Shown piece after piece: positions 27,745 through 60,226 of a DNA stretch of 64,000 bases. Within the stretch, counting starts at the first letter, position 1, and each line of letters opens with the position of its first letter. Source of the stretch: Okamejei kenojei. Its lineage: Eukaryota. Location: NCBI GenBank assembly GCA_035221665.1, contig JAVHYY010000292.1, forward strand, positions 248,001 through 312,000. The letters are read 5' to 3'. The notes under the pieces were generated by a model, which saw nothing but the letters and a program-made list of their open reading frames with translations, was not told the origin of the DNA and ran no database searches. Made by a program: the position numbers and the translations under genes.

Positions 27745-27785
27745 GTGAATCTAGCATAATACCTTGTTTCCAAAGCCTGCCTTGA
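27745..27785 (+). CDS. SRCR receptor terminal coding exon (GESSIIPCFQSLP*)
   Basis: Strong acceptor ttttctttcccag|; phase-1 reading gives a TGA at 27783-27785; followed by AT-rich UTR-like sequence. Confidence 0.6.
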
Positions 27786-28217
27786 AATGATGGAAGTCGC
27801 TCGGCGTTTCATCAGACATCACGTGCCTTTCACCCTTCCTGCAAGATCGACAAGCAGATCTTCACAGCATTGATATCACTCGCCAACTTATCACAAGCAG
27901 AATCTTTGACTTGTTGTTAAAACACTTGGTTTGATTTTTTTGCCGTAAACTTGGAAGAAAACATTTATACACTGCTCCCTGGACAGGTGTAGAAAAACAT
28001 ATGCAATCGTCATTCTTCTGGAAGAAAGATCTTTTTTTTCCTAATCAATAAATGTATGTTGATTTGAATTTGTAAGCGTTTTTATACATTCCATGTAAAT
28101 GCTTAAGATTGTGAAGGTTGAAATGAATGTTACTTTTGCTCTTATCATGCTTTACCTTGCTTTGGTGTTCGTAATGAACTGTTTCAATCTCGCTCAATGT
28201 AAGAATTGAACAAGTGT

Positions 28218-28265
28218 AATAAATACTTCAGATGGAATTCGATATTAATGTGTTCATATTTTGTC
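28218..28265 (+). terminator. Polyadenylation signal of the SRCR gene (also AATAAA at 28047-28052)
   Basis: AATAAA at 28218-28223 plus a downstream GT/T-rich element, conserved in the paralogous copy at 50218. Confidence 0.65.
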
Positions 28266-31432: not shown

Positions 31433-34400
31433 GGGTTACACAAAAAGCTGGAGAAACTCAGCGGGTGCAGCAGCATCTAAGGAGCGAAGGAGATAGGCCG
31501 ACGTTCGGGTCGAGACCCTTCTCAGACTGGTCAGGGATCAGGGAAACGAGAGATATAGACGGTGATGTGGAGAGATAAAGAACAATGAATGAAAGATATG
31601 CAAAAAAAATCGATGATAAAGGGAACATGCCATTGTAAGCTGTTTGTGGTGTGAAAATGAGAAGCTAGTGCGACTAGGGTGGGGGAGGGAGATAGAGATA
31701 GAGGGAATGCCAGGGCCCGAGAGGTCTGAGGGAGAGGTGGGAAGGGGAGGAGACAGCAAGGGTTAACAGAAGGGTTAACTCGATACCACAGCCACATCTG
31801 CTTCCTCGGGGCTTGCCTGCGCCTCCATCTCATACCCCGTGGATTCCAGCTCCAATTCTCTGCTTCCCAGTTCGGACCCCAGCCGCACTATCGGTACCGA
31901 CTGGCTATCTGCCGCCACACTGTACAATTCTCCAACCGGGCACTAAGATCCACCCTGGTTGCTATGCGCCGACACCCAGCAGGACCTATCTCGCATTGAC
32001 TCTCCCGAAACTTCGGGCCTCACTCACCCAGACCTGCAACGGACCCCAACTACACTACATCCTCCCGGAAGATCCCACCGCTTCAATCAACAATTCCTGT
32101 CCCACCTTACCCGCCACCAAGGACCTGAAATTAGCCCGCCTCCAGGCCGTTCCAGCCACCGACAATCGACCGACTCGACCGCCCGCAGGCCCCGGGCCCC
32201 CACTCTGGCCCGAGCCGCCGGCCTGAGTCCCCCCGACGCCATCTTGTCCACTAGGAGCGCCTCCAGACTCACCAGGACGCCGCCTTCACCGACCTCCACG
32301 CAGATGCTGCCGCCGACCTCCACTGCCTACTGATGACGCCCAGCCCCCGCTGCCTGCCCGGTAACTATTTATATCTCCCCCTCCCCGATTCCACCGCCCA
32401 TCACCAGCGCAACGGACTGCCAAACCTCGCCGCCATTTCAGAATCCCCCCCCCGGGACCACCTAACCCCATCACCGTACCAGGCTCAACCAGCATCGCCT
32501 GTGTACTGGCCCGCCGAATGACCACAGCCGCCACACCGGGCCCATCCAGCATCGCCGGTGTACTGGGCCCCGCCGAACACACCGTGCCCACCCGGGCCCA
32601 CATCGCCGCGGGCGGTGTAAGAGCTGGGCCCGCCGGTAACAGCCGCAGCCCCGCCTCACCTTGCATCGCCCGCCGGACCAGGGCTCCCCGAACACGGCCG
32701 CCGCACCACACCCCACAATCATCATGGCCGCCTCACCGTCGGAACCGCCCACCACCCGCCCACCAGGACCTCCAACGCATCGCCGCCCCCGCCGACCCCG
32801 ACTCCACTGCCCGCGGAATCCCACCTTCGGGCCGCCGACCCACGAGACACCACCGCCCTCCAGCAGCCCGCAGCCGCTGCCCCTCACCTGCAGACTGGAC
32901 TCTGCAGTGGCCTGAACCTCCACGTTGCTAACTCCTCCCACCACACATGGGTCCTAGTGCCTGTCTCCCCCAGCCCCAGTAACCTTAGTGGCTATTCCAC
33001 TGGGTCTTCCCCATCCCCCCCTACCATGTAACCCTTGCTCTTCCCCACCCACACCACAGCCCCCATAACCCCCCCACCCCCTGACCACCCTCCACCCCCC
33101 CCACCACACAAAAAACGCTCCATCCTCATTCACTCACCTGCCTTCCTCCAGCCACAAAGGCCCCCATCCTTGCCGCATGTTCACCATCCCCCTGCTGTAC
33201 CTCCCCCTCTCCGACACCAACGGATCCTGTCCCTCAGCAGAGGTCTTAACCTTTGTCCCCCCTCCGTCCCCACCTCAATGAGTTTCCGCGCCCACCACGA
33301 CTTGGAGCTCTTCTAAAACCGTCGCCTCCGCCTCACAGCGTTCTTCTTCCACGGGAAGAAGTCCTCGCCCCCCACTGATGATCCCTTTTCCTGTCCTCCC
33401 ACGTACCCCCTCCACTTGGACCCCCCCTCGTAAGCCTTCCGGCTCTAGAACTATTTATCCAGAACTGCCGTCGGGACATCAACCGCCGCCTGACTTCTCC
33501 ACTCCCCTGTCTCACTCCAATCTCTCCAGCCCCGAACGTACTGCCATCGACTCACTCCCGTAACAACCCAGACTGGGTTATCAAACCCACCGACAAGGGA
33601 GGTGCCGTGGTAGTCTGGCGCGTCGATCTCTACAAAGCGGGCCGCGCGCCAACTCTCGGACACTTCCTCCTACTTACCCCTGGACCAGACCCCCACTCAC
33701 GAACACCAGCCACCATCTCGAGCACCGATAACCGACTTCATCAGCTCTGGCTCCCTACCCCCCTGAGCCTCCGACCTCATCGTTTCCCAGCGCCCGCACG
33801 GCCCGATTTTACCTTCTCCCCAAAAATCCACAAACCCGACTGCCCTGGCAGACCCATTGTCTCTGCCTGTTCGAGCCCCACCGAACACCATTTCTACATA
33901 CCATGACGCCATCCTAATCCCCCTATGTTAAAGTTCCCTCCCCCACCTATGTTCAAGACACCTCAGACACTCTCCGTCGCTCCGTGCATTTCCATTCTCC
34001 AGGCCCCCATCCTCTCATCTTTACCAATGGACGTCCAGTCACTCTTCACCTCCATCCCCCACCAGGACGGTCTCAAAGCCCTCCGTCTTTCCTCGACCAG
34101 AGGAGCAACCCCATACCGACCACTGACACCCTTTCCTCCGCCTATCAGAGTTGGTCCTTACCCTCAATAACTTCTCTTTGATTCCTCCCATTTCCTCACA
34201 AATACAAGGTGTAGCTATGGGGCACACGCATATGGCCCCAGCTACGCTTGCCCTCTTGTTGGGGTACGTCGAACAGTGCTTGTTCTCGCGTACCAGGTCC
34301 CCATCCCCGACCTCTACCTCTGTTACATCGACGACTGCTTTGGTGTCACCTCCTGCACCCACACACAAGGCTTACTGACTGACTTCATTCATTTCACCAC

Positions 34401-35836
34401 CAACTTCCATCCGGCACTCATAATACACTTGGGACCATTTCCCGACATTGTCCCTACCATGGTTCCTTGACCTCACCCATCTCCCATTGCAGGTGAATAC
34501 ACTCCCCTGACCGACAATCCACGTACAAACCAGCTGACTCCCACAGCTACCTGACTACTCTTCCTTCCCACCCTGCGAGTTCCTGTAAGGACTCCATCCC
34601 CTATTCCCCAATTCCTCCGTCCTAGCGCTACGCCGCATCTGCTCCCAGGATTGAGGTGTTCCACACCAGGTCATCACAAATGGCCTCATTCTTCAGAGAA
34701 CGGGGATTCCCCTCCCCCCACTATTGATGAGGCTCGCACCATGGTCTCCTCCATAGGTACCCCGCAACCAACAGCCCTCTCTCCCCATCTCTCATTCGCA
34801 AACAGGGCAGAGTCCCCCTGGTCTCACCTTTCACCCCACCAGCCGGCCGAAATACAGACACATAGTCCTCCACCAGTTTTCGCCACCTCCAACGTGACCC
34901 CTCTCCACCCGCCAACCTTCCCATCTCCCCCCCTGTCTGCCTTCCACAAAGACCCACTCCCTTCCGCAACATCCCTTTGTCAATTCTTCATTCTTTCCCT
35001 CCAACCTCCCCGCTTTACTAAAACCCTTCCCCCGGGCACTTTCCCTTGCAACCGCAAGAAATGCAACACTTTCCCTTCACCTCCCCCCTCCACTCCCTTT
35101 CCGAGGACCCAAGCAGTCCTTCCAGGTCCTGACAGAGGTTCACCTGCACCTCCTCCAACCCTCATCTACTGTGCACTCCGCTGCTCCAGATGCCAGTGAT
35201 AGGATCTATATGCGGTGAGACCAAGCGGAGGCTTGCGGCGGATCGTTTCGCCGAACACCTCCGCCTCGGTCCCGCAATAACCAACCCGACCTCCCGGTGG
35301 GCTTAGCTCTAGCACTTCAACATCCCCCTCCCATTCCGTATCCGACCTCTCGGTCCTGGGGCCTCCTCCACGGCCAGAGTGAGCAACACCGCAGTTGGAG
35401 GAACAGCACCTCATATTCCGCTTTGGGAGTCTGCATCCTTTGGCTTGAACATTTGAATTTTCTCAATTCTGTTAACCCTGCTGTCTCCTCCCCTTCCCAC
35501 CTCTCCCTCAGCCCTCGGGCCCTGGCATTCCTCTCTCTCTATCTCCCTCCCCCACCCTAGTCGCACTAGCTTCTCATTTTCACACCACAAACAGCTTACA
35601 ATGGCTTGTTCCCTTTATCATCGATACTTTTTTGCATATCTTTCATTCATTGTTCTTTATCTCTCCACATCACCGTCTATATCTCTCGTTTCCCTGATCC
35701 CTGACCAGTCTGAAGAAGGGTCTCGACCCGAAACGTCGCCTATCTCCTTCGCTCCTTAGATGCTGCTGCACCCGCTGAGTTTCTCCAGCTTTTTGTGTAA
35801 CCCTCGATTCTCCAGCATCTGCAGTTCCTTCTTTAA
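31433..35836 (+). mobile_element. Near-full-length Neptune-type Penelope-like retroelement with inverted pLTRs and a 15-bp TSD
   Basis: 31433-31771 is the reverse complement of 35467-35803; ~33 nt tail; TSD cacaagatttagact at 31418-31432 and 35837-35851; N-terminal HICFLGACLRLHLIPRG, YIDDC RT, PCNRKKCNT linker, GIY-YIG; many indels. Confidence 0.93.
35710..35737 (+). ncRNA. Minimal hammerhead ribozyme motif in Penelope pLTR
   Basis: CUGAAGA-A-GGGU(CUCG)ACCC-GAAAC-GUC: both core boxes, helix II and a GUC cleavage triplet. Confidence 0.75.
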
Positions 35837-41767: not shown

Positions 41768-42668
41768 TGTAGGGGGTCTTTCCGTTTCCCGCGAAAGGGA
41801 TTCCCCTAGGTTCTATACCTCGGAATTATGGTGGGATATGATAAAAGGTTGAATTGACCAGAGTGTGCTGATGAGAGAAAACAGAAACCAAGATGGACTC
41901 AAAGCAAGTCTAAATTTACAGGCTTTATTAAACAATGAGAAATCAAATCTCACCAACACTACATAATACAGAAACTTATGCTTTAAACTAAGACTATGGA
42001 AGGAAAACTATCGGGCACGTCGTAAAACTTACTTTAACAATATTTTACTCCCCTTTCCCTTATACACTCAACCTCCTATCCTATTTCGGGAAGTCCACCA
42101 AGTCACCAGGATACTCACAGCTAAGTTGATGCAGACTCACGAGCTGTCCAATAGTGCAGGAAGAGCAGGAAGAGCCAAAAGAGCAGAGAGAGTTGTGGCT
42201 GGACTCCTGTTTTATACCTGAGATTCCTTTCAACCCCCCAGGTGGTCCTCTGGATAAAAGGGCTTCTTTTGATGTTTCCCAGTTTCGATCTGGCATGAAC
42301 AATAGGCTTCCGATGATAAGGGGTTTGCTGATGTCATGATCCCTCAGCCTGATCGTTATCCCATCGCCTGGATGGGTTCCTATTGTCTCGATGGATGGGT
42401 CATCCACGATGGTGGTTGTGCTTGTTGCTGGCCTGTTTACCACCGTCTGCTGAGGCTTGCTTCCTTCCTTTGTGTATCCAAGAAAATCTCGTTATCTCCG
42501 TCTCTGCCTTTGTTCACACCGTTGTGTGATGTCCAAGTCCACGGGCCAGACGGTTTGAAACTTGAAACTGAGTCTTTCTGTGGATTGCGGGTTTTGCCGT
42601 TGCAGCCAGCAAATCTGTCTTTTTGAAATGCCCATGTCCTTATCCACGTTCTTCCATAATAACTTACA
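41768..42668 (-). mobile_element. Probable solo LTR (~900 bp)
   Basis: TGTA...TACA termini; minus-strand TATAAA (~42210-42215) upstream of AATAAA (41924-41929); no TSD seen. Confidence 0.6.
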
Positions 42669-42740
42669 CCTCTCTCCTTCTTTCCTTCTTTCCTTCCTTC
42701 CTTCTCTTTCCTTCTTTCCTTCCTTCCTTCCTTCTTTCCT
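42669..42740. repeat. (TTCC)n microsatellite
   Basis: Direct reading. Confidence 0.85.
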
Positions 42741-45700
42741 TGTGTGTCGGCATTGTGGGTGTATGTCACATTCCATTTTTACGTACACATTTTTAATAAC
42801 ATCCTCCCCCGCCCCCAATATTTCAAAATGTTAAAAAAAATCAAAATGCTCTCACCCATAGAATGTTGGTGAGCGTTCCATTGTGTGATGTCACAATGCC
42901 CAATGCTCACAGATGCCCAATCGGAAAGGATCTCATTTACATATGCCCCAGCACCAGCCCCGCCCACCGCAGCCTGTGTTGAAGCGGGTGATCACGTGTG
43001 TGGGAATAGAGAAAGAGGATTGGGGCTGATAGGGAGTGGGGAATAGATGGACTGCCCCTACCCCTCCCCTCCCTCTCTACCTCCCCTCTCTTTCCCTTCT
43101 CTCCCCCCACCCCTCTCCCCCTCCCCCCATCCCTCTCCCCCTCCCTCCCCTACCCCCTCCCCTCTCTCTCCCCCTGCCTTCCCCCTCCATCGCCTCTCTC
43201 CCCCACCCCTTTTTCCGTACCCCTCTCTCCCTCTTCCACCACACCCCCTACCCCTCTCCCCCTCCCCATTCTTCCACTTCTCTCCCCCTTCCCCACCACT
43301 CTCCCTCCCCACCTCTCTCCCTCCCCCACCCTATCTCTCCCCTCCATCCCTCCCACAACCCCTTTCCCCTACACCTCTTTCCCCTTCCACCACTCCCTCT
43401 CCCTCACTCCCACCACTCCCCCTACCTCCCCACTCATCCACTTCTCTCTCCTCATCCCCCAGCCCTCCCAATCTCCCTCCCCCACATTTCTCTCTCCCCC
43501 CTTCCCTCTCCCTTTCCACTCTCTCAGCTCTCCCCCTCCCCCACTCTTCCCCCTCCCCCTACCAATCTTCCCCTCCCTCCACACTCTTCGCTCTCTCTCC
43601 GCCTACCCCTCTCCCCCTCCCTCCACACTCTTCCCCCTCTCTCCCCTTCCCCCTCTCCCTCCTCCCTCCCCTCCCTCCATCACCCCTCCTCCCTCTCTCG
43701 CCATTCCCCACCCCTCTCACCCCCTCCCCCACCCCTCTCTCACCCCCTCCCGGAACCCTCTCTCACCCCCTCCTCCACCCCACCTCCCTCCTCCCCTTCC
43801 CCTCTCTCCATCTCCCTCTCTCCTCACCCCTCTCCCTCCTCCCCTCCCATGCTCTCTCTCCCCCGTCCCCATCCTTCACCCTCATCTCCCCCCACCCCTT
43901 CCCCTCTCTCTTGCACCACTCCCTGCTACCCCTCCTCCCCTCTCCCTCCCCCTCCCCCTCCCCACCTCTCTCCCTCCCCTTTCTCTCTCCCACTCCTCTC
44001 CCTCCTCCCTCCCTCCTTCACCCCTCTCTCCGCTTTCCCACCCCTCTCTCCCTTTCCCCTCTCTCAGCCCCTCCCAGAACCATCTCTCACCCCCTCCTCC
44101 ACCCCCTCTCCTCCCCTTCCCCTCCCCATCTCCCTCTCTCCTCACCCCTCTTCCTCCTCCGCTCCCACCCTCTCTCTCTCCCCCTCCCCCATCCTTCACC
44201 CTCATCTCCCCCCCACCCCCTTCCCCTCTCTCTTGCACCACTCCGTGCTACCCCTCCTCCCCTCACTCCCCACTCTTCCCCTCTCCCTCCCCTCCCCACC
44301 TCTCTCCCTCCCCTTGCTCTCTCCCCCTCCTCTCTCTCCCCTCCTCGCTCTCCCCTGCACCCTCGCCTCTCTATCTCCCCCTCCCATCCCCCTTCCTCCC
44401 CTCTCTCCTCCCACCCCTTTTTCCCTACCCCTCTCTCCCTCGCCCACCACTCCCCCCTACCCCTCTCTCCCTCCCTCCCCACTCTTCCACGTCTCTCCCG
44501 CCTTCCCCCACCCTCTCCCTCCCACCTCTCTCTCTCCCCACCCTCTCTCCCCTTCCCTCCCTATCTCCCCCACCCCTTTCCCCTACCCCTCTCTCCCTCT
44601 TCCACCACACCCCCCTCCCCCTCCCTCTCTCCCACTTCCACCACTCCCCCGTACGCCTCTCTCCTCCCTCCCCACTCTTCGGCGTCTCTGTCCCCATCCC
44701 CCAGCTTTCCCCATCTCCCTCCCCCACCCCTCTCTCTCCCCCCTCCCTTCCCTCTCCCTCCCCACTCTTCCCCCCCTACCACTCTCCCCCTCCCTCCACA
44801 CTCTTCCCTCTTGTAAAGATGGTACACGGACACCATGGAATCTTTACTACTTTAATGAACACATTACTGCCCTAGCTGTACGTGGTCTGTCACGATCACT
44901 AGAGAGCGAGCTAGGGGTGTGAAGGTTACAATTATACTAACTGGTGAGGGAGTGGTTAGCATGGACATCGTCACTATCAATTAAAGGTGTATACACATTT
45001 CATCTACACCTCTCTCTCCCCCTAACCCTCTCCCTCCGCCCTCCCTCCTCCCTCTCTCCCCTTCCTTCCCTCTCGCCCCTTCCCCACCCCTCTCGCACCC
45101 CCTCCCCGAACCCTCTATAACCCCCTCCCCACCCCTGTTCACCTCCATCTTCCCTCCACCCCCCTTCCCCTCTTTCTTGCACCTCTCCCTGCTATCCCTC
45201 TCCCCCTCACTCCTCACTCTTCCCCTCTCTCTCCCCCTACCCACCTCTCCCTCCCCTTTCTCTCTCTCCCCCTCCCCTCTCTCCCTCCTCTCTCTCCCAC
45301 TCTATCCCTCTCCTCTCTCCCCCCCTCCACTCTCCCATCCACCTCTCCCCTCCCCCCTCTCCCCTCCCCCTCTTCCCCTCTCCCCTCCCCTTCCCCCACC
45401 CCACTACCCTCCTTTTCCCTACCCGTCTCCTCCTTTACCCTCCCAGCTCTGCTCCCCCGCCCCCATACTCATCCCCCTCTCTCTCCCTCCCCTCCCCACG
45501 TCTCCCCCTCCCCACTCTCTCCCCATCTCCCCTCCCCACTCTCTTTCCATCTCCAGCTCCCTCTCCCCTCCTCCTCCCCACCCTCGCCCGCTCACCCGCA
45601 CATCCTTTCCTCCCCTCCCCCCCCCCCGTGTGTGCGGGGTGGTAGTTAGTGTGTGTGACGCGACATGCTGCCCCCCCCCCCCCAACCGCACATTGGGGGA

Positions 45701-48700
45701 ACAGACCCAACGGGTCTGCACTTGGTCTAGTCTACTTTTAAAACTGTGTGTGTGTGTGTGTGTGTGTCGGCTGTGTGCGTGGTTCTATGTCACATTCCTT
45801 TTTTTTTCAGATAAGTTCTTTGGCTTTTGATTCCATGGTCCGCCAAAACCAGATGCGAAAACCCCGTTATTTTTTCCATTTCACTAGCGATTTCGCTTCA
45901 ACATGCACGGATTTACTCCTCAATACATTTAGACATTTTGATGTACACATTTTTTAATAAAATCATCCCCATCCCCCCCACACACTCACTCATTTAAAAA
46001 AATCGAAACGGCACCTCACGAGCTGCTTACGTCACAATCACACATGCCGACCAATCCCAAGCCGCTTCTCCCTCTTCATTTGGCAGCGCCCCCCCCCCCC
46101 CCCTCCAACTACGCTCCGCGCCTCCCGCAGCTCGAAACGCCCGCGCGCGCGCCCGCTCAAAACACGCCCCTTCTCAAAATGCTCTGCAGATCGGGAGGAG
46201 AGATAAGGCATCAGTTCCGCTCTCACGCCGGCATGCTCTGCAGATCGGGAGATGAGATAAGGAGATGGGCGGGCGGGGTAAGGCTCGATCCTGGGGAGGT
46301 GAAGAGGGGGAGTCGGGGGATTGAGGGAGAGGGGGGAATGGGGGAGGTGACGAGGGAGAGTGTGGGAATAAAGGGAGAGGAGTGGGGGTGAGAGGGAGTG
46401 GGGAATAGATGGACTGCCCCCCCTTCTCCCTCTCCCTCCCTCCCCACTCTTTCCCCTCTCTCCCCCTACCTCTCTCACCTTCTCTCCCCTACCCCATCAC
46501 CTACTCGCTCCCCACCCTCCCTTCACCCCACCTCCACCTCCCTCCCCTCTTCCCCTTCCCTTCCCCCCTCTCCGCCCCCTCTCCCCCTCCCATCTCTCTC
46601 ACCCATCCCCCCCCCTCACCCACCCTCCCTCCCTCACCCAACCTCCCCTTCCTCCTCCCCTCCACCCCCTCTCCCTCTGTCTCTTGCCCTTCTGTCTGCC
46701 CCTTTCTATTTCTCTCTCCCCATTCTCTCTCTGCTCTCATTCTCTACCCCCTCTCTCGCTCCCTCACCCCCCTATCTCGCTCTCTCTCTCCCTCTCGCCC
46801 CCCTCTCTCACCCCCTCTCTCTCTCACCCCCTCTCTCACCCCCTCCCTCTCTCACCCTCCCCCTCTCTCTCTCACCTTCCCCCTCTCTCTCTCTCTCTCT
46901 CCCTCCCCCACTCTCTCTTTCCTCCCCCCCTCTCTCTCCCTCCCCCCTCGCTCTCTCTCCCACCCCCTCCCCCTCTCTCTCCCTCACCCCTTCTCTCTCC
47001 CCTCCCCCACTCTCTCTCCCCCCCCCACTCTCTCTCTCCCATCTCTCTCCCCGCTGTTTCCCCTCCCCCTCTCTCCCCTCCCCCTCTCTCTCCCCCTTCC
47101 TCTCCCCTATACCCCCTTCCCCCATCGCTCCACACCCTCCCCTCCACCCCTCCCCCCTTCCCTCCACCCCTTCCTCTCCCCCTCCCGTCTCACCACATCT
47201 CCCCACTTCCATCCCCCATCTCCCCTTCTCTCTCCTCCCATCTCTCTCTCCCCTCCTCCCCCACCCTCCCTCTCCTCCCTCTCCTCCTCCTCCCTCCCTC
47301 TCCTCCTCCTCTTGTCCACTCCCCCCCTCTCCCCCTGTCTCTTTCCCTTCTGTCTCTGCCTCTCTCACTGTCTCTCCCCATTCTCTCTCTGCCCTCACTC
47401 TCTACCCCCCTCTCCCTCTCTAGACACATCTGCGAGTTGGGGGCTATGCGTCGGTGGCGAGGGCGGTTATGGGGTAAAAGGATCTAATTAATAATATTAA
47501 TATAACATCAAGGGGGTAGTTAGTGTGTGGGAGGTTAGTGTGTGTGACGCCGCATGCCCCCCCTCCCGCAAACGCGCGATGGCGGAACAGACCCAACGGA
47601 TCTGCACTTGGTCTAGTATACTTTTAAAACTGTGTGTGTGTGTGTGTGTCGGCCGTGTGTGTGGGTGTATGTCACATTCCATTTTTTTTCAGATAAGATT
47701 TTTGGCTTTTGTTTCCATGGTCTGCCAAAACCAGACCCTCAAACGCCGTAATTTTTTCCATTTTGCTAGACATTACACTTTTACATTCACAAATGCACTA
47801 CTCATTACATTTAGACATTTTTATGTAGACAATTTTAATAATATCCCCCCCCACCCCAATATTTCAAAATGTAAAAAAAAATCAAACTGCTCTCACCCAT
47901 AGACTGTTGGTAAACGTTCCATTGTGTAATGTCACAATGCCCAATGCTCACAGATGTCCAATCCTCCCTTCCCTCTCCCCACTCTTCCCCCTCTCTCCTC
48001 TCTCTCCCTCCCATCCCCACTCTTCCCGCTCCCCCTACCATTCTACCCCTCCCTCCACACTCTGCCCTCTCTCTCCCCCTACCCCTCTCCCTACCCCTCT
48101 CCCCTCCCTCCACACTCTTCCCCCTCTCAACCTTTCCCCCTCTCCCTCCTCCCCCCCTCCTCCCTCTCTCTGCTTCTCCCACCCCTCTCTCCCCCCTCCC
48201 CACCCCTCTCTCACCCCCTCCCCAAAACCTCTCTCACCCCCTCCCCCACACCCTCTCCTCCTCCCCTTCCCCCTCTCTCCGCCCTCCTCCCTCTCTCCTC
48301 ACCCCTCACCCTCCTCCCCTCCCACCCCCTCTCTCCCCCCTCCCCACCCATCGTCACCCCATCTCCCACCCCTTGCCCCCTTTCGTGCACCACTCCCTGC
48401 TACCCCTCTCCCCCTCACTACCCACTCTTCCCCTCTCCCTCCCCTCCCCACCTCTCTCCCCTTTCTCTCTCTCTCTCCCCCTCCTCTCTCTCTCCTCTCT
48501 CTCCCCCTTCCAATCTTTCCCTGTCCTCTCTCTCCCCCTCCACTCCCTCTCCAGCTCTCCCCTCCCCCTCTTTCTCCCCCTCTCCTCTCACCTCCCCCTC
48601 TCCCATTCCTCCCCTCTTCTCCCCCACCCCTCTCCTCTCACCTCGCCCTCTTCCCCTCTCCACCCCTTCCCCCATCCCTCTCTACCCCCTTCACCCCTCT

Positions 48701-49504
48701 ACCACCCCCTACCCCTGTCTCCTCCTTTACCCTCCCTGCTCTCCTCCCCTCTCCATCCTCTCTCTCCCTTCCCCCTCTCCTCTCCTCTCCTCCCCACTCT
48801 CCCCCATCTCCCCCTCCCCACTCTCCCACCATCTCCCCCTCCCCACTCTCTCCCCATCTCCCTCTCCCCTCCTCCCCACCCTCCCCGTCTCCCCTCCCCT
48901 TCCCCAGCCCTTTTCCCCCCCCTCACCCACCCTCCCCCTCCCACTCTACCACCCCGTTCCCCCTACCCCTGTCTCCTCCTTTACCCTCTGCGCTCTCCTC
49001 CCCTCCCCCCAACCTCATCCCCTTCTCTCTCCCTTCACCCTCCCCTCTCCCTCCCCACTCTCTCCCCATCTCCCCCTCCCCATTCTCTCTCCTCATTTCC
49101 CCCTCCCCCTCCCCACTCTCTCTCCATCTCCATCTCCATCTCCCCTCCTCCCCACCCTCCCCCCTCATCCCCACATCCTCTCCTTCTCCCCTCTACCTCT
49201 GTCTCTTGCCCTTCTGTCTCTGCCTCTCTCTCTCTGTCTCTCCCCATTCCCTCTCTGCCCTCACTGTCTACCCCCCCCCCCCCCTCCCCCCAGACACGCC
49301 TGTGAGTTGGGGGCTATGTATCAGTGGGTAGGGCGGTTATGGGTTAAAGGGAGCAAATTAATAATATTCATATAATATCAAGGGGGGTAGTTAGCGTGTG
49401 TGCGGGGTGGTAGTTAGTGTGTGTGACGCGACATGCTGCCCCCCCCCCCCCCCTCGCAACTTCACGTTGGGGGAACAGACCCAACGGGTCTGCACTTGGT
49501 CTAG
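42741..49504 (+). mobile_element. Tandem array of three non-autonomous Helitrons with internal C/T tracts (units ~42741-45730, 45731-47616, 47617-49504)
   Basis: Each unit ends in the hairpin cagaccc-aac-gggtctg, then cacttggt, then CTAG; the next unit starts TCTACTTTTAAAACT or TATACTTTTAAAACT; the last CTAG is followed by host T. Confidence 0.88.
44812..45008. mobile_element. 197-bp solo LTR inserted in Helitron unit 1
   Basis: TGTAAAGAT...ATCTACA termini; cctct on both sides (44807-44811 and 45009-45013); complex sequence embedded in a C/T tract. Confidence 0.7.
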
Positions 49505-49752
49505 TACGAATTAAATTTATCAATGAGAACATTGCATATATATGCGTTGAAACTAAAAAAACAAGTTTTTTTAAAAACATTGCCTCCACATGATATCATG
49601 ACGCCGGAATCTATTAATTTTCAGGAAATACTTTCCGTATGCTTAGACCATGCATTGGTAATTAAGAGGATGTAATGGAGACGATATAATCATGACTAGC
49701 TCTAATTAACTCCATTGTACATTTTAGCTTACGCAATGTTTTTATTCCTCAG

Positions 49753-50300
49753 GTACCTTCCAACGCGAGTCCTGAAGTGATGAAAAAGGTTCTGCGTTAC
49801 ATGGGACAGCACATACCTCTCACCTTTCCAGTAACATGAACAAGCAGATCTCCACTGCATTGTCTTCACTCACTGTGTAATCACACACGCACATATTGAT
49901 TTGCTTTGAGATCACTGCATTTGATGTTTGTCCGAGAGCTTGCATGAAAACATCTTTATTCTGCTAATGCGCACGTGTAGGGAACTGACTGGATAGATAT
50001 TCCCATGGAAGAGAGATCACAGTGACATTCTTTGAATGATAAACGATTTATCGGAATTTGTCTTTTTGAGCCTTTTCCAATATTCTGCATAGATTATTAA
50101 GAGAGCGCGGGAGATCAAATTAATGCACGCTCATTTTACCATGCCTTACACTGTTCTGGTTATGGTCAATAATATTTTTTCATTCTCATCGTGTTTAATC
50201 GAAAGATCGAAAAACTTAATAAATACTTTGGATGATGTTTGATATTAATGTGTTCTTATTTTGTCAAGAAACGAGTGTCTCTGAGACACTGAAACAACAC
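49753..50300 (+). other. Diverged duplicate of the SRCR gene terminal exon/3' UTR with acceptor and polyA signal
   Basis: attcctcag| acceptor; shared blocks with 27745-28300 (acaagcagatct, taataaatactt, gatattaatgtgttc.tattttgtc); AATAAA at 50218-50223. Confidence 0.8.
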
Positions 50301-51005: not shown

Positions 51006-52629
51006 TTACACCTTTTTATTTTAAACTGCCGGCAGGACATCAACCGCCTCAACTTCACAACTTTCTCACTCTAACCTCTTCCCCCCCCCGACGTACAGCC
51101 CTCCACTCACTCTGCAACAACCCAGACTGGGTGATCAAAACTGCCAACAAGGGAGTTACTGTGGTAGTCTGGCGCACTGATCTCTACAAGGCTGAGGCCA
51201 CTCGCCAACTATCACTGACTTCATCACTTCTGGCTTCCTGCCTTCCCAAGCCTCCAACCTCATCGTTCCCCAGCCCCGCACGGCCCAATTTTATGTTCTC
51301 CCCAAAATCCACAAACCTGACTGTCCTGGCAGACCCATTGTTTCTGCCTGTTCGTGCCCCACTGAACATACCTCGACTCCATCCTATCCCCCTTGGTTAA
51401 ATCCCCCCCCCAGGTATGTTCAATGCACCCTCACATGTTCTTCGTCTCCTCCATGACTACCGTTTTCTAGGCCCCCATTCCCTCATCTTCACCGTGGATG
51501 TACGGTCACACTTACACCTCCATCCCCCACCAGGAGGGTCTTAAAGCCCTTCGTTTCTTCCTCGACCACAGAACCAACAAATCCCCCTCTACTGATACAC
51601 TCCTCCGCCTTGCGGAGCTGGTCCTTACCCGTAACAACTTTTCATTTGAGTCCTCCCATTTCCTCCAAATCCAAGGCGTAGCTATGGGCTCGTGCATGGG
51701 CCCAAGCTATGCCTGCTTCTTTGTAGGGTACATCGAACAATCCTTGTTTGAGGCGTACCGTGGCCTGAACTCAACTCTACATCTGCTACATTGACGACTG
51801 CATTGGTGCTACCTCCTGCACCCATACAGAACTCACTGACTTCATCCAATTCACCACTAACTTCCATCCAGCACCCAAATACACCTGGACCATTTCTGAC
51901 AGTTTCTTGTCCTCGCTATCTCCATTGCAGGTGACAGAATACTGAACAACATCTATTATAAACCCACTGACTCCCATGGCTATCTGGACTACACTTATTC
52001 CCACCCTGCTTCCAGCAAGGACTCCATCCCCTACTTCAAATTTCTCCGTCTACGCCACATGTGCACTAACTATGAAGTATTCCAATCCAGGCATCGGAGA
52101 TGTTCTCATTCTTTAGGGTCCAGGGGATCCCCTCTTCTACTATAGATGAGGCTCTCACCAGGGTCTCTTCTATACCCGTAACTCTGCTCTCACTCCCCTC
52201 CTCCCACACATAATGAGGGAAGAGACCCCCTTGTCCTCACCTTCTGACCCTACTAGCCGTCACACACAACAAATAATCCCACAACATTTTTGCCACATCC
52301 AAGGGGATCCCACCACTGGCCACAACTTCCCATCTCCTACCCTTTCGGCTCTCTGCAGTGACCGCTCCCTCCGTAACTCCCTGGTCAATTTGTCCCTTCC
52401 CACCCAAACCATCCCCTCTCCTGGCACTTTCCCTTGCAACCGCATGAAATGCTAAATTTGGCGTTTTACCTCCCCCCTTGATTCCATCCAAGGACCCAAG
52501 CAGTCTCTCCAGGTGTGGCAGAGTTTCATCTGCTCCTCATCCAACCACATATATTGCATCCGCTGCTCTAGGTGTCAGCTGCTCCACATCGGTGAGACCA
52601 AGCAGAGGCTTGGCGATCGTTTTGCCCAA

Positions 52630-53855
52630 GACCACAGACAGTACCTCCTCCCAGAACTTCCTGTCCTTGATCACGGAGGTCTTGGAGGACAGCAAATGGG
52701 AGAGTCTGGACCAACCACTGACCCTAGAGGAGCTGACTGGCTCCATCCGTTCCTTTGACTCGAATAAAACTCCCGGAAGCGATGGCTTACCGGCAGAGTT
52801 GTATTTGGCTCTGTGGGACTGGATGGGCCCGGACCTGCTAGAAGTGTACAATGACATGCTTCTAGCTGGTAGCATGTCAGACTCCATGAGGAAGGGCAAC
52901 ATCACCCTAATCTACAAGCAGAAGGGGGAGATGAAGGACATAAAGAATTGGAGACCCATAACACTCTTGAATGTAGACTACAAGATCCTGTCTAAGGCCA
53001 TCGCCAACCGGGTCAAGTCTGCTCTGGGACATGTGATCCACCCGGACCAAACCTGTGCTGTACCTGGCAGGAAAATCACAGACAGCCTAGCGCTGCTGAG
53101 AGATACCATCGCCTACGTGCAGGACAGACGGGTGGATGCCTGCCTAGTCAGCTTGGACCAGGAGAAGGCCTTCGACAGGATTTCGCACACTTACATGAGG
53201 GACGTGCTCTCCAAAATGGGTTTTGGGGAGGGAATCAGGAATTGGATCAAACTGCTCTACACCAACATCCGTAGTGCAGTCCAAATCAATGGGTGGGAAT
53301 CAGACAGTTTCCCTGTAAGGTCTGGAGTTAGGCAGGGTTGCCCTCTCTCTCCTGTCTTGTTTGTCTGCTGTATTGAACCTTTTGCCGAATCCATCAGGAA
53401 GGATGCGAGCATAAGAGGAGTGACATTGCCAGGCAGTGGGGGCATTCAAGTAAAGACCTCCCTGTACATGGACGACGTCGCTGTCTTCTGCTCGGATCCA
53501 GGGTCGGTCCGCAGACTGATTAGTATCTGCGACCAGTTTGAGTCGGCCACGGGAGCCAGGGTGAACCGCAGGAAGAGCGAGGCCATGCTCTTTGGCAACT
53601 GGCCCAACAGATCTTCCGTCCCCTTCACCATCAAGCCTGACTTCTTGAAGGTGCTGGGGATCTGGTTCGGGGGGGCTGAGGCATGTAACAGAAATTGGCT
53701 GGAGCGGATAGCCAGGGTGGGGAGTAAGCTGGAGCTGTGGAGGCAACGCTCCCTCTCCATACGGGAAAGAATTTGGTCATCAGGTGTGAGGTGCTCTCGG
53801 GGCTGCTGTACTTGGCACAAGTGTGGCCTGTCCCTCCCTCCTACGCCACGGGGAT
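52630..53855 (+). mobile_element. Internal fragment of a Tx1-like (L1 clade) LINE reverse transcriptase
   Basis: PLTLEEL..NKTPGSDGLPAE..KNWRPITLLNVDYKI..LDQEKAFDR..GVRQGCPLSP..YMDD; open for ~375 codons with one frameshift near 53765. Confidence 0.92.
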
Positions 53856-54171
53856 CAACACCTCTGCTCTGTTTGCAATAACAAACCGGATCTCCCGGTG
53901 GCTCAGCACTTCAACTCCCCCTCCCATTCCGAATCCGTCCTTTCTGTCCTGGTCCTCCTCCATGGCCAGAGTGAGTCCCACCGTAAATTGGCTGAGCAGC
54001 ACCTCATTTTTCGCTTGGGTACTCTACACCCCAGCGGTATGAACATTAACTTCTCCAATTTTAGGTAATCCCTGCTTTCTCCTTCTTTCCCCTCCCCTCC
54101 CCAGCTCTCCCACAGCCCACTGTCTCCGCCTCTTCCTTTCTTCTAACCGCCCCTCCCACTCCCACATCAGT

Positions 54172-56646: not shown

Positions 56647-56717
<71 letters not shown>

Positions 56718-59395: not shown

Positions 59396-59443
59396 ATTCA
59401 TTCATTCATTCATTCATTCATTCATTCATTCATTCATTCATTC
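59396..59443 (+). repeat. (ATTC)n microsatellite, probably a LINE 3' tail
   Basis: Direct reading; preceded by tgtgacaatgaagt. Confidence 0.8.
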
Positions 59444-60226
59444 ACTGTCAAATATGCATTTTCGAAAACCGTTCTCAGCGAACTAAGTATTGAACAATTA
59501 TATTTTCAATAATTATATAACCATAAATCTAGATGTGGTCTTACCAGGGCAATTTATAATTGGAGTACATCATTTTGTCCAGGTTATTCAAATTTCCCTG
59601 CAGGGCGACAAGGCATATTGTCATTTAATTTATCTTTATTATTTGTCCTAGACGATATTATTGATGGTTCATTCAGTGATGATGTATGAGCGGGGCTGAG
59701 AAATTAAAAGGGAATGATCACCATGTGGGGACGTAGTTTTGCCCCCAAATAGTCAACGGGAATTGGAAGCGTTAATATGCCGGGAGATCGCAGGCAGCTG
59801 CTGAGTTGTCACAGTTCGGGGATATTTACTTTCCCAATATAGACTGGGACTGACATAGCCATAGATTCATGTCCTAGAGCACGGAAACAGGCCCTTCGGT
59901 CCAACTCATCCATGCCGATCATCGTGCTGAGGGATTAGATGGGATGGAATTTGTCAAATATGTTCAGGGAAGTTTCATTTGGCAAAATGCAGAGGGACCT
60001 ACAAGGCAGAGGGCAGTGCTTGACCTATTCTTGGGCAATTGGGAAGGGCACGGGATGTGTCAGTGGACGAGCCTTTTTTTGGACCAGGGGGGCGCAGTTC
60101 CCACACACACGAACAAACTATTCACGCAAACTTGATAATAAGTAACAGAAAAGCACTTATGATTTAATGATGTTATTGGCAACTTAGCAAAGGTTTTGTC
60201 AACGTGGTGAACATTATCCACTTTAA

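Follow-up and report, generated by a model that had tools for sequence, protein, structure and literature searches.

The window analysed here is a stretch of 64,000 nucleotides from the genome of Okamejei kenojei, and all coordinates given below are positions within it. Its left part (9244-17900) contains several exons with SRCR domains (PF00530 in four frames, plus a fifth repeat). They are part of a scavenger-receptor gene whose cluster is duplicated, paralogs being present on contigs C38, C480, C505 and C492. A probable short last exon, recognised by eye, is located at 49753-49780, to the right of the array of transposable elements described below, and has a 65% paralog at 27768-28265. On these grounds a second gene copy, its upstream part missing from the window, would have the array within its last intron. 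Other repeats are present. The region 31433-35803 consists of inverted repeats of about 270 bp (94-100%) around a GC-rich, frameshifted stretch, with a related fragment extending to about 36800; its six short frames gave no Pfam match, and we take the element to resemble a Penelope-like retroelement. Reverse-transcriptase frames (PF00078) at 52448-53881 and 19362-20087 are probably LINE fragments. Simple repeats include a 27-bp AT-rich minisatellite (14115-14214), an (AAT)24 (56647-56717) and an (ATTC)12 (59396-59444).

The array is composed of three non-autonomous Helitrons, arranged head to tail on the forward strand. As the first-pass annotation had claimed, each one ends in a 7-bp hairpin (45702-45718; 47588-47604, with one stem mismatch; 49476-49492), followed by an 8-nt spacer and CTAG (45727, 47613 and 49501); the window has three matches to this pattern, where shuffling predicts 0.00. 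Unit 1 (42742..45730) is a copy without 5' terminus, whose start is a GT tract at about 42742; its filler amounts to about 1.75 + 0.6 kb of C/T-rich DNA (90-92% C+T for the filler of the array), and its 3' terminus (45702..45730) has a DNA fold of -6.7 kcal/mol. Unit 2 (45731..47616, 3' terminus 47588..47616) lacks its first four bases, TCTA, starts with bases 5-6 in their rarer form, TC, and differs from units 1 and 3 in its interior sequence. Unit 3 (47617..49504, 3' terminus 49476..49504) also lacks its first four bases and adjoins host DNA on the right, where the right half of the original target (49505..49515, forward strand), recognised from paralogous empty sites, has T at +1 and TAA at +8. 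Two copies of the motif TACTTTTAAAACTGTGTGT are present in the window, one after each internal CTAG, and both junctions are without the TCTA prefix. The three blocks that the first-pass annotation described as shared between pairs of units are found at 42888/47929, 43032/46394 and 47434/49304.

The left side of the array is rearranged. Unit 1 has no start of the TACTTTTAAAACTGTGTGT type: its 5' end is absent from the window, and the GT tract stands behind a (TCCT/TCTT)n microsatellite (42669..42741, forward strand) that occupies the expected place of the 5' end and of the prefix stack discussed below. The microsatellite is itself preceded by a young solo LTR (41768..42668), copies of which are 95-99% alike. 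This LTR has no target duplication (GCTG/CCTC), and several related copies show 4-bp duplications. The outer 5' edge and the left host flank of the array were probably lost by deletion or LTR recombination. An interpretation of the (TCCT/TCTT)n tract as a decayed prefix stack is unsupported, as no second case was found among the loci compared and the stack of the paralog is ordinary. In the same young LTR family (L293-L303), some of the 95-99% identical copies are paired 7-15 kb apart. A second solo LTR, of 197 bp (44812..45008, TG...CA, with CCTCT on either side), lies within unit 1.

Loci paralogous to the window site were examined. Searched against the genome, the right flank gave 15 further matches, including six empty paralogs with A|T, one with G|T and four filled ones. 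The six empty paralogs (L308, L310, L314, L315, L317 and L318) join A directly to the T of the window. Three of the filled paralogs stop at contig edges; the fourth, L320, has all three units in unchanged order and an intact outer edge, which reads host, four TCTA, TCTC and a decayed start, with about 10 host bases missing next to the stack. The 197-bp solo LTR is private to the window and missing from L320. The block that the first-pass annotation had restricted to units 1 and 2 is also present in unit 3 of L320, so that part of the mosaic of shared blocks, the positions of which stand, is the result of later deletion. Because the three units are in order in this paralog, the array predates the segmental duplication and is not a collapse. 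An assembly artefact in low-complexity DNA might still be considered, since the window lies on a 493-kb contig in a duplicated region, the rearranged 5' edge could itself be a misjoin, and among the public contigs listed none runs across the 1-kb stretch queried. Four public runs from three organisms, two of which are related species that carry the family, yielded many contigs of the 3' end, with loose ends continuing T...TAAA; since none of the matches listed spans the stretch, these runs are silent on the integrity of the array. Against an artefact, the units differ from each other, their order is repeated in the diverged paralogous array on a different contig, each array having insertions of its own, and hundreds of such junctions are present on the largest contigs. 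We consider the probability of an artefact negligible: the three-unit feature is real.

The array belongs to a large family. The exact 29-nt 3' end has 1,229 copies in the 2.76-Gb genome, compared to 0 for a control pattern, and T directly follows 219 of the 225 distinct 3' ends at the loci sampled. The 5' motif is found in 946 copies that are not preceded by G (free ends). The base before the free motif is A in 96/100 of the matches listed, and TCTA stands exactly before it in 47/60 free ends. The true 5' end is A|TCTA-TATACTTTTAAAAC. For subfamily B the start is TCATA|TATCTATTAAAAC; this prefix was first read from stacks, and 24 of 46 B-type free ends have it at their start. Left and right flanks were searched independently for empty sites; of 67 closed arrays, 8 gave clean ones, 3 of 11 matches having been dropped (two self-matches and one split vote). 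At these eight sites the letters before the motif that derive from the element number 2, 2, 4, 4, 8, 16, 20 and 29 nt, the short prefixes being TC (twice, C type), TCTA and CCTA. Since the prefixes at clean empty sites are element-derived, TCTA is the start of the element, and the stacks do not stem from microsatellites of the host. The TC that the first-pass annotation had read as the 5' terminus at junction 1 is therefore an internal variant, as free ends and empty sites both put TCTA in front; among the matches listed, this variant of bases 5-6 occurs in 10/100 free ends vs 1/100 junctions. Consensus 5' boundaries made from junctions would accordingly sit too far inward.

By their ends, target and copy number, the window units form a canonical non-autonomous Helitron1/HLE1 family, and their identification as Helitrons is confirmed. 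Empty sites give TCTA- or TC- starts, i.e. a 5'-TC; the 3' end is CTRR after a hairpin; insertion is at A|T without target duplication at all eight clean empty sites, and at A|T in six of the seven empty paralogs of the window site; and the family is dispersed and multicopy. With canonical elements of the Helraiser/Helibat type, as described in PMC4778049 and PMC11417382, it has in common the 5'-TC, the subterminal hairpin, CTAG-3' and A|T insertion without target duplication. An assignment to Helitron2/Helentron (HLE2) was rejected: insertion is at A|T, not T|T, and no terminal inverted repeat was found among pairs of at least 25 nt.

Related RepHel elements are present in the genome. PF14214 has 101 matches, one frame of which aligns to the Rep domain of Helraiser (PDB 7lcc, E=9e-79) across the HUH and two-tyrosine motifs, and adjoining frames match the PIF1 domain. 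All RepHel loci examined are broken. They carry C-type ends, with a common GACCCAACGGGTC core, which are related to the A-type ends of the window. The C-type stem GGGACCC/GGGTCCC is two compensated pairs apart from the A-type stem CAGACCC/GGGTCTG, the two outer pairs being C-G and A-T in the A type and G-C and G-C in the C type, i.e. double changes. The A-type ends were found at 0 of the 9 RepHel loci examined, so the RepHel partner of the window family can only be inferred; the transposase of the related C-type elements may act in trans on it.

The central question is how the units came to be adjacent. Head-to-tail Helitron arrays have been cited as genomic evidence of rolling-circle concatemers (PMC5876387, PMC12001565), and the first-pass annotation had called the array a concatemer, with each internal CTAG abutting the 5' end of the next unit. 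The 5' motif indeed follows at both junctions, but what adjoins CTAG is not the true 5' end: the sequence resumes at the fifth base. Genome-wide, 343 junctions read CTAG|T(A/C)TACT.. without TCTA, vs 9 complete CTAG|TCTA; 79 B-type junctions are without TCATA. Prefix-less junctions account for 27% of exact 5' motifs for the A type and up to 63% for the B type, these ratios to free ends being approximate: the patterns used for junctions and for free ends are a few letters apart, and no G was allowed among the six bases upstream of B and C free ends.

A single circular intermediate, made into a multimer and inserted in one event, would account for the head-to-tail orientation and for the 9 complete junctions. 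An imprecise circle junction could possibly drop four bases, since aberrant junctions were present in about half of the Helraiser circles prior to DpnI digestion (PMC5876387). In a circle junction, CTAG and 5'-TC are joined exactly (PMC4778049), and both window junctions depart from this; nor are the units copies of one element. In their last 120 nt the window units are 0.68-0.80 identical among themselves, vs 0.93-0.95 to their partners in L320. Neighbours genome-wide are as unlike as random pairs (0.60 vs 0.60 identity over the last 120 nt, 47 pairs, p=0.86), and 0 of the 47 adjacent pairs reach at least 95% identity. Moreover, subfamilies are mixed within arrays, and the lost prefix turns up at the outer edge with the signature of the downstream unit. 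The claim that the window array is a rolling-circle concatemer is thus largely refuted, and we judge this origin highly unlikely; the preference of the first-pass annotation for serial insertion over a single rolling-circle event holds. Some of the 9 complete junctions may have a concatemer origin. Two of them (G000:C29:7180410-7180651, L286 and L287) are 200 bp apart on opposite strands, with a third 13 kb off, and are candidates for true circle-type junctions or for an inverted duplication.

The target itself was found to contain a positioned motif. TAA is present at +8 (36 cases) or +9 (23 cases) in 59 of 93 host flanks, after 10 of 103 had been excluded because they were simple repeats or decayed starts of the element. 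In the window, 290 of 8,078 AT sites (3.6%) carry the motif. The same register is found within the element: TAA is at +9 after TCTA|T in the A type, at +8 after TCATA|T in the B type, and at +8 at the host site of the window. The family prefers A|T with TAA at +8/+9, and its own start carries the same motif after base 4. This is a difference from canonical Helitron1, since the target preference corresponds here to a positioned motif inside the start of the element. A plain preference for AT-rich DNA or for existing (TCTA)n microsatellites, with stacking as a by-product and no position-specific motif, would agree with the AT-richness of the termini and with the behaviour of Helraiser, reported to prefer AT-rich DNA within about 20 bp of the site, most strongly on its 3' side (PMC4778049). 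However, no TCTA repeat is present at the empty sites, and composition-preserving shuffles gave a mean of 10.5 motif-bearing flanks (maximum 21 in 2,000) vs the 59 observed, in which TAA peaks at +8 and +9. This preference is refuted at the sites tested, and we regard it as extremely unlikely.

Subfamilies of the C type differ in the same respect. C1, which has C|T at the inner site, follows CTAG in 3/84 cases, vs 8/21 for C2, which has mostly A|T inside (p=8e-5), in hand counts on contig C1:0-65 Mb that a possible age difference between the subfamilies would confound. In this natural control, then, a subfamily lacking the inner A|T is seldom invaded.

Orphan prefixes pile up at the outer 5' edge of arrays as (TCTA)n or (TCATA)n; the empty sites are without such repeats. 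The composition of the stacks follows that of the arrays: in the raw table, TCATA is present in the stack of 9/13 arrays with a B unit downstream vs 6/55 without (p=4.9e-5), and in the cleaned table, from which 4 of 68 rows were dropped as junctions and in which 2 mis-parsed rows were reclassified, in 9/9 vs 6/55 (p=1.8e-7). Two exact TCTA are found at 299 of the 946 free A-type ends. A one-to-one tally of units by the stack is ruled out, prefix count and unit count showing no correlation in 50 closed arrays (rho 0.07, p=0.61). Single units often have several prefixes, 2-5 or more (L135, L101), and no hidden junction was found in most of them. Since prefix number does not track units and single units carry several prefixes, extra processes are needed; re-mobilisation from an outer TC, recombinational collapse of tandems and, where several TCTA already follow each other, slippage are the likely sources of surplus prefixes. 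The TC variant of bases 5-6 occurs mostly with long stacks (L091, L095, L101, L110, L131, L138, L147, L163, L168, L176 and L177), and the long stacks of this set drift outward to (TCTG)n or (TCCA)n, which suggests that slippage overwrites the terminus at such loci.

The explanation that we consider very probable is that the three Helitrons arrived serially, each one into the A|T between bases 4 and 5 of the 5' terminus of a resident. A newcomer inserted at this position would leave the prefix of the resident outside its own start, and the array would grow leftward. Unit 3 would be the first insertion because it adjoins host DNA, followed by unit 2, and unit 1 would be the last of the three. 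No intermediate with just one or two of the window units was found among the paralogs of the window flank. Age polarity was not detected either: when both ends of a pair are compared with the common 25-mer, the upstream one is the closer in 14 pairs and the downstream one in 22 (p=0.24), by a crude measure and in a sample mostly chosen for intact downstream starts. The absence of detectable polarity would also fit insertion of newcomers at the 3' end of a resident (G|T) with loss of their own first bases, which is one of the two orders proposed for an adjacent pair in maize (PMC2267711); the 5' stacks would then have formed separately, by slippage, as the long pure stacks at L110, L131, L138 and L147 might indicate. 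Yet isolated copies sit at A|T with full prefixes, the motif in host DNA beyond the last CTAG agrees with the internal site that follows each junction, and slippage of TCTA is not expected to give TCATA chiefly where a TCATA-type unit is found downstream. We therefore hold insertion at the 3' end to be very unlikely.

Serial insertion into the 5' terminus has partial precedents. FoHeli of Fusarium oxysporum has acquired multiple 5' termini by self-insertion near the 5' end, and nicking at the leftmost terminus was proposed to hand the duplicated 5' ends to daughters (PMC5148889). FoHeli is Helitron2-like, however, with 31-85 bp duplicated and no target motif in the terminus given in the text available to us (PMC5148889), whereas here prefixes of 2-5 nt remain and build microsatellites. 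In maize, the differences between the two units of an adjacent pair were taken to mean that they had inserted consecutively (Du et al. 2008, PMC2267711), and head-to-tail arrays are known in bats (Pritham and Feschotte 2007, as cited in PMC2267711). These arrays have complete CTAG|TC junctions (PMC2267711), whereas the junctions described here are offset by 4-5 nt and are a genome-wide phenomenon. Tandem dimers formed by double insertion in Drosophila (McGurk and Barbash 2018, PMC5932611) likewise owe their tandem arrangement to site preference and not to rolling-circle replication, but they re-use a preserved target duplication; here there is no duplication and the element's own terminus is re-used. 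The word helitron is absent from the main text of PMC5932611. Self-insertion and consecutive adjacent insertion are thus known, while the combination of a motif register and a prefix stack was not found in the literature searched. For the positioned motif inside the terminus, published logos (Helraiser Fig. 5a, Xenopus, wheat) may show it; for the prefix-derived microsatellite, looked for in main texts, Kosek 2021 and Pritham and Feschotte 2007 may bear on target capture or on the junctions. The sources behind these negatives, represented by the portions accessible to us, include PMC5876387, PMC13286980, PMC12001565, PMC10288648, PMC4344730, PMC4067079, PMC3789558, PMC11934779 and PMC11417382.

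No host function of the array is evident; its significance concerns the biology of the transposons. The missing prefix, looked for at the outer edge, is a simple test between concatemer and serial self-nesting. A vague preference for AT-rich targets is replaced by a positioned motif, testable with the Helraiser system, and the stacks suggest how tetranucleotide microsatellites could arise from DNA transposons. More tentatively, and with slightly less confidence than doubt, we propose that the transposase has two registers for one TAAA-type element, 11-13 nt past the cut for copying and 7-8 nt for targeting. If this is true, any subfamily whose inner register falls on A|T would be its own preferred target, and subfamily-coded prefixes would turn 5' edges into an inherited record of earlier insertions. 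Microsatellites of the (TCTA)n/(GATA)n kind would then have a systematic origin, and some published 'concatemer' arrays would be self-nested stacks with mis-set 5' boundaries.
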